Below, one piece after another: positions 224 through 60,247 of a stretch of 64,000 bases of DNA. The stretch covers positions 24,740,001 through 24,804,000 of the forward strand of contig NC_045696.1 of NCBI RefSeq assembly GCF_009834535.1, written 5' to 3'. Both the position numbers and the translations under genes were made by a program. Numbering within the stretch: position 1 is the first letter of the stretch; each line of letters opens with the position of its first letter. Source of the stretch: Camelus ferus. Its lineage: Eukaryota. Under the pieces are notes generated by a model. That model saw nothing but the letters and a program-made list of their open reading frames with translations, was not told the DNA's origin and searched no databases.

Positions 224-350
224 ATTTAGGGCATAGGATATGGACAGACCAACTACTGCTGAATCAATGGAATTGCCAGCCAGCACAGCAAGCAGTGCAG
301 CGAAGAACACCAGTAAGTTGCCAAGAAATTCAAGTCTAACAGACAGCCAC
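224..350 (-). CDS. ABCC13: ABCC13 exon 22 (127 nt): (R)[42 protein letters not shown]
   Basis: attctag acceptor, AAT|gtaagt donor; NRWL.VRLE and GLS.SYAL motifs. Confidence 0.96.

Positions 351-60247: not shown

Follow-up and report, generated by a model that had tools for sequence, protein, structure and literature searches.

Camel ABCC13 is, at a probability that we put at roughly 0.78, a working exporter of the short MRP type. Its gene lies on the minus strand of the 64-kb stretch of DNA that we analyzed (the window), in which splice-site fitting placed 21 exons running from 60247 to 224. An intact ABCC13 in mammals and the camel gene annotation are already known; judging from the alignments, the one feature that distinguishes camelids in an otherwise ordinary ABCC13 is the replacement of Asp by Val at residue 131 (D131V).

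Gene structure and reading frame

Spliced together, the 21 exons gave a coding sequence of 2919 nt, or 973 codons with no stops, in which 404 of 8757 point changes (4.6%) would create one. All 20 introns had GT-AG ends with pyrimidine-rich acceptors, which is partly by construction because the search, guided by P0012 (a C. bactrianus/C. ferus RefSeq-type model) and tblastn anchors, restricted acceptors to AG and donors to GT/GC close to those anchors. The counts in the initial annotation of this DNA (21 exons, 973 open codons, canonical ends) were reproduced exactly. Gene exons 2-22 lie in the window. Gene exon 1 (24 codons) was absent from the window, where a six-frame search scored at best 23 (self score 125), and residues 998-1296 also lie outside. 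The initial annotation had correctly placed exon 1 and NBD2 beyond the window; when these unseen parts were checked, camel RefSeq models supplied both exon 1 and an intact NBD2 without lesion.

The window product was identical at 973/973 positions to residues 25-997 of the 1296-aa RefSeq models XP_014414041.2 (C. ferus) and XP_010958823.2 (C. bactrianus), which are labelled "MRP1-like" and correspond to guides P0010 and P0012; since these models were possibly derived from the same assembly, they do not independently prove the exon set. Identity to the dromedary model was 970/973 and to that of alpaca 960/973. Independent support came from rhino, fox, dolphin and horse models, which fill all 973 columns at 89-91% identity, and from transcripts, with Logan-derived proteins spanning 19 of the 20 junctions. 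No stop or frameshift was found in full-length models of four camelid species. The models of three camel species were full length with all motifs, and no name shown was flagged as low quality.

All exons are on the minus strand. The first in the window (gene exon 2, 60186-60247 in the spliced model, residues 25-45) starts the lasso/L0 region, and the second (54065-54212, residues 45-94) continues the lasso and carries its WXXE motif (W80-E83, 54109-54098). The first core transmembrane helix, with K127 (MRP1 K332) and V131, is encoded at 53195-53337 (residues 95-142), followed by exons at 48117-48294 (residues 142-201), 42284-42538 (202-286, in which the human/gorilla frame-shift site, near 42469, is intact in camel), 40027-40092 (287-308), 37051-37188 (309-354) and 35502-35648 (355-403, with R388, L389 and D393). 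The connecting region, with S407, R410 and E419 retained, is at 33736-33820 (residues 404-432), and a further exon at 33574-33640 (432-454) precedes NBD1. The NBD1 exons are 32923-33049 (residues 454-496), with Walker A GQVGSGKS at 33006-32983; 29339-29515 (497-555), with the Q-loop at 29503-29483; 26086-26253 (556-611), with the signature ISGGQ at 26244-26230, the degenerate Walker B IYLLDD at 26184-26167 and the D-loop; and 24781-24943 (612-666), with the H-loop at 24937-24923. The five motifs that the initial annotation had called intact, Walker A, Q-loop, signature, Walker B and H-loop, were therefore all located in NBD1. Linker exons at 19727-19802 (residues 666-691) and 12946-13006 (691-711) lead to the start of TMD2 at 12279-12498 (712-785), which is followed by exons at 6408-6562 (785-836), 4349-4504 (837-888, with H846, R850 and D858), 1105-1304 (889-955, R955 being MRP1 R1197) and, last in the window, 224-350 (955-997).

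Two extra exons of dromedary model P0002 (45097-44999 and 15150-15061) were rejected, as they are not in the conserved protein. The exon at 35648-35502 is 147 nt long with phase 0-0. Several orthologue models are short by ~49 residues (924/973 columns), which would fit skipping of this exon.

Domain architecture and substrate pocket

Camel ABCC13 is a 1296-aa short MRP composed of lasso, TMD1, NBD1, linker, TMD2 and NBD2. P0012 scored 1524 against the TIGR00957 MRP model (cutoff 1470) and contained two ABC_membrane and two ABC_tran domains. No Pfam match to TMD0 was found in the camel, dog or guineafowl proteins, while fish ABCC2 had one. In the NBD1 Walker B, Asp stands where the catalytic Glu would be, and because this Asp is common to MRP1 and 39/39 orthologues it represents the degenerate site of the family. 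NBD2 of the camel RefSeq models has GRTGAGKS, LSVGQRQ, ILILDE with the catalytic Glu, and IAHRL with the His. A single hydrolysing NBD site is the established pattern of MRP1.

The AlphaFold model of dromedary P0004 (1200 aa, NBD2 truncated, 970/973 to the window) had a pLDDT of 81.6 and a pTM of 0.77, with a disordered N-terminus and linker. Its top Foldseek matches were ABCC2 and ABCC1, a likeness of family and not of activity. MRP1/ABCC1 (PDB 8vt4, 9lg6-9lgf) shares the core fold, the lasso and the asymmetric NBDs. The WXXE motif sends ABCC7 and ABCC4 to the apical membrane and is noted in ABCC13 (PMC10721954); the motif alone is not diagnostic of ABCC13, since MRP1 has WKKE at the same place. 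K406, D430, S612, R615 and E624, which are critical for folding of MRP1 (PMC7877750), were all retained in camel.

We compared the substrate cavity using residue lists for the MRP1 GSH pocket and cavity from PMC12647609 and PMC8267652. Six of the ten GSH-pocket residues were retained (K332, L381, Q450, R1197, N1245, R1249) and four replaced (H335A, F385Q, Y440N, F594L), while none of the five hydrophobic-pocket residues was identical (T550M, W553L, M1093T, Y1243S, W1246F). The basic pocket residues K127, R388, R955 and R1007 are kept, and the aromatic wall is replaced throughout ABCC13. Relative to MRP1, ABCC13 as a whole also adds charges at D/E393, H846, R850 and D/E858, at or beside cavity-lining positions.

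Identity as ABCC13

The camel protein was identical to human ABCC13 at 243 of 299 positions (81.3%) and to proteins named ABCC13 at 89.9% in dog and 86.6% in cattle, versus ~50% to fish ABCC1, ABCC2 and ABCC3. In a homologue search with one exon as query, 474 of 502 candidates matched and 120 were listed, with camelid proteins at 100%. A quick, unrooted IQ-TREE analysis of 20 rows, among them no mammalian ABCC1/2/3, placed the ABCC13 sequences in a clade with a support of 100, apart from ABCC1/2/3 and including wallaby and guineafowl. This clade follows the species tree, with camelids beside whale and ruminant and no long camelid branch. The nearest paralogue in the tree was fish ABCC2; ABCC13 is listed as derived from ABCC2 in PMC2329642. 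MRP2/ABCC2 (PDB 8jxq, 9c12), the top Foldseek match, has a TMD0 and only ~50% identity.

Public databases list many ABCC13 orthologues (among them P0017, P0019, P0059 and P0362) as MRP1-like, ABCC2-like or ABCC6, and these labels have hidden how widely the gene is retained. The source names, together with best PDB matches to MRP1 and MRP2, are what would favor the gene really being ABCC1, ABCC2 or ABCC6. We regard this as almost certainly wrong given the identities above, the missing TMD0 and the separate clade, and the ABCC13 identity proposed initially is upheld by the tree support and the 81% identity to the human protein. In addition, sheep model P0096 fuses RBM11 to ABCC13, probably through annotation read-through of neighboring genes. 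In human, RBM11 is the neighbor of ABCC13, and synteny with RBM11 and HSPA13 would be expected of orthologues; the sheep fusion may speak against an ABCC1, ABCC2 or ABCC6 identity.

ABCC13 in other mammals

From the 120 listed of 474 matches we took a single model for each species, giving 4 camelids and 39 others. Near-full-length models (at least 1190 aa) were present in 36 of the 39 non-camelid mammals sampled among the matches listed; these are predicted gene models, and the sample is skewed to intact genes because it was gathered by protein search. Further full-length models were found in pig, gibbon, orangutan, beaver, marmot and ground squirrel, and near-full-length ones in hippo and cattle. 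ABCC13 of dog, pig, cattle, macaque, gibbon and orangutan is 84-91% identical to that of camel, measures 1274-1297 aa in the models that are full length, and shares the motifs and pocket residues of camel, with camelids alone having D131V and a few private changes. As near-full-length ABCC13 models are common in the mammals sampled, an intact copy in camel is expected. The initial annotation had described a functional gene that this lineage probably keeps; the gene is indeed intact and constrained, but its retention is no peculiarity of the lineage, as most sampled mammals have near-full-length models.

ABCC13 is listed as a human pseudogene in PMC3777468 and PMC2329642. The human products (Q9NSE7, 274 aa; AAL99903, 325 aa) share 81% identity with camel over the 299 aligned residues, and the 274-aa product lacks both NBDs, which camel has (NBD2 in the models). 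Past "MSA", in the exon at 42538-42284, the human and gorilla products go out of frame, and we infer an 11-nt loss as the cause; the human frameshifted tail corresponds to the alternative frame of the camel exon. The frame is read through at this site in camel, orangutan, gibbon, pig, beaver and squirrel, while the chimpanzee and bonobo models compared were truncated or lacked the stretch. PMC4458048, which cites Annilo and Dean 2004, places the loss in "great apes". Judging from the gene models, loss in apes seems confined to human, chimpanzee, bonobo and gorilla, a smaller group than in that statement, because orangutan and gibbon models are full length. The orangutan (P0373, P0383) and gibbon (P0357, P0377) models were 1296-1297 aa long with five of five tested motifs. 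Loss in rodents has been published for mouse in one paper and for mouse and rat in another. The description of ABCC13 as degenerate in rodents therefore holds for mouse and rat, but beaver, marmots and ground squirrels have models of 1294-1298 aa.

Constraint on the camelid protein

An independent group of 18 species from outside Laurasiatheria served to class the columns. Of the 46 changes on the camelid stem, 6 fell at invariant columns against 49% expected (p=3.5e-7), in a test that is protein-based rather than dN/dS, assumes equal mutability across columns and is blind to loss of function in the last few My. The corresponding rate ratio at invariant columns was 0.16, compared with 0.22 in ruminants, 0.30 in dolphin, 0.18 in horse and 0.35 in fox. 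Of the 19 changes that followed the camel-alpaca split, 3 were at invariant columns (p=0.003), and a cruder leave-one-out version of the test had the same outcome. Since camelid changes avoid conserved columns, camelid ABCC13 is, at the level of protein sequence, under purifying constraint. Camel had 22 private changes at near-invariant columns, within the range of 12-60 across 18 non-camelid lineages tested. Besides D131V, the stem changes at invariant columns were L253I, Q289K, K298R, D695N, S921P, I1100T and G1286E. Of 44 pattern matches in a metagenome scan for orthologous DNA, one was a relative, an MRP at 29% identity and of no use for dN/dS.

A camelid-specific substitution in the first core helix

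In the alignment, the codon for residue 131, which corresponds to MRP1 D336, is at 53227-53229 on the minus strand. This residue was Val in the four camelid species sampled and Asp in each of the 36 other mammals that have a residue at this column, among the matches listed. Among proteins P0001-P0140, of which 31 were without the motif, all 13 motif-bearing camelid proteins had Val and the 96 others had Asp; Asp was also present in guineafowl and in 52 of an additional 54 proteins, of which the remaining two (Val) were camelid-type. Camelids thus keep K127 and lose the Asp of the K-x-x-x-D of the first core helix (MRP1 K332/D336), where V131 is one helix turn (i+4) from K127. Among MRP-family representatives, 95 of 150 had Asp in this column, 17 had gaps and 4 had Val. 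As the pattern is not universal, its loss lowers the expectation that the protein works like MRP1 and not its membership in the MRPs. Work by Haimeur in 2002 on charged TM6 residues of MRP1 is said to have found that D336 substitutions reduce transport broadly; its title appears among the references of PMC10651738. D131V would remove the acidic neighbor of K127, and it probably alters selectivity or rate without killing the pump. Our search of openly accessible papers found nothing on camelid D131V, no title on MRP1 D336 among the papers listed, and no title about camels among papers on ABCC13.

Transcripts and a cryptic exon

The sole camel transcript assembly seen, from one run, showed that ABCC13 is transcribed and spliced with exon 1 included, in a non-productive form. 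Protein P0315, derived from Logan, runs from gene exon 1 through the third exon of the window and then enters a stop-bearing cryptic exon (51568-51724, minus strand, one Logan contig), with an acceptor AG at 51726-51725, an in-frame stop at 51570-51568 and candidate donors after 51566 or 51471. The junction between window exons 3 and 4 is without transcript support because the sole contig enters the cryptic exon there. This exon and its surroundings (51724-51568) presumably resemble an old LINE2-type repeat. Logan protein P0001 reads 25 codons (223-149, minus strand) into the intron beyond the last window exon, a candidate for a retained intron or for an isoform that ends early and would be without NBD2 and the last helix. 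P0315 and P0001 are probably one contig, since both come from 3871-nt contigs. P0316 did not count as RNA evidence, since it seems to have been projected from the human 325-aa isoform.

Predicted function and competing readings

By analogy with MRP1 and MRP2, an anion would enter the inward-open cavity lined by K127, R388, R955 and R1007, and ATP would bring the two NBDs together. Hydrolysis would take place only at the site formed by the Walker A, Walker B and H-loop of NBD2 with ISGGQ of NBD1; the cavity would then turn outward and release the anion, and the WXXE motif of the lasso may favor apical delivery. As cargo, we tentatively propose, at somewhat less than even odds and by analogy with the family, amphipathic organic-anion conjugates (sulfates, glucuronides, bile-acid-like) over GSH conjugates such as LTC4. 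The latter are less favored because four of the ten MRP1 GSH-pocket residues are replaced, which makes the GSH-conjugate substrate of the initial annotation the weaker first guess. In the literature searched we found no ABCC13 substrate, transport or protein data. Annilo and Dean reportedly described expression of ABCC13 in macaque gut.

It could be argued that camelid ABCC13 is weakened, re-tuned or in early decay, through D131V together with diversion into the poison exon. All four camelid species sampled share D131V as a fixed change that is not present in other ABCC13 sequences, the stem carries the further changes at invariant columns listed above, the sole assembled transcript has a premature stop, and loss in humans, other apes and mouse implies that the gene is dispensable in some lineages. 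However, the camelid stem is no less strongly constrained than other mammals, this constraint continues after the camel-alpaca split, the number of private near-invariant changes is ordinary for the lineages tested, and four camelid species have full-length models without stop or frameshift. One contig from one run, its tissue of origin unstated, also has little bearing on the main isoform, and we consider a weakened pump unlikely. A very recent pseudogene, with a lesion that is regulatory or outside the window, appears highly improbable. Exon 1, the promoter and residues 998-1296 lie beyond the DNA read here, and RefSeq models can be corrected across breaks, but the models of three camel species are complete and unflagged in the names shown, and exon 1 is transcribed and spliced in P0315.

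A working short-MRP exporter therefore remains our preferred reading. The description of the gene as probably a functional orphan MRP-type exporter gained from the intact unseen parts and the purifying constraint, with activity still a prediction by analogy, although it had missed both the stop-bearing cryptic exon and D131V. It is also conceivable, if quite doubtful, that camelids have re-tuned ABCC13 cargo or gating through the first-helix Asp-to-Val change under purifying selection, perhaps with dosage control by the poison exon. If so, camel and dog would form a natural experiment for identifying the substrate of ABCC13 and for the part that D336 plays in MRPs.

ABCC13 is an orphan that is broken in humans and African apes, missing in mouse and rat, and, in the models sampled, near-full-length across most mammalian orders and in one bird. 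This bears on drug and toxin handling, in that humans are without a pump present in livestock, dogs and monkeys. Apart from D131V, which offers a testable contrast, little is added by the camel copy, since dog, pig and macaque serve as well.

Other features of the window

Rfam and ARAGORN returned no matches in the window, and among plus-strand open frames of at least 75 aa, read by eye, none resembled a second gene. A GC-rich intronic stretch at 44250-44750 (GC 0.53, 12 CpG) contained the motif CAAGATGGC and is probably an LTR-type repeat or a regulatory remnant. A second intronic stretch, at 22250-22750, had a GC of 0.56 and was CpG-poor. In intron 1, the CpG observed/expected ratio was 0.67 at 63250-63750, which may mark the border of a regulatory region close to exon 1. 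Short intronic tandem duplications were present at 21026-21096 (period 35), 21392-21448 (period 27), 41286-41372 (period 24) and 54937-54996 (period 30).
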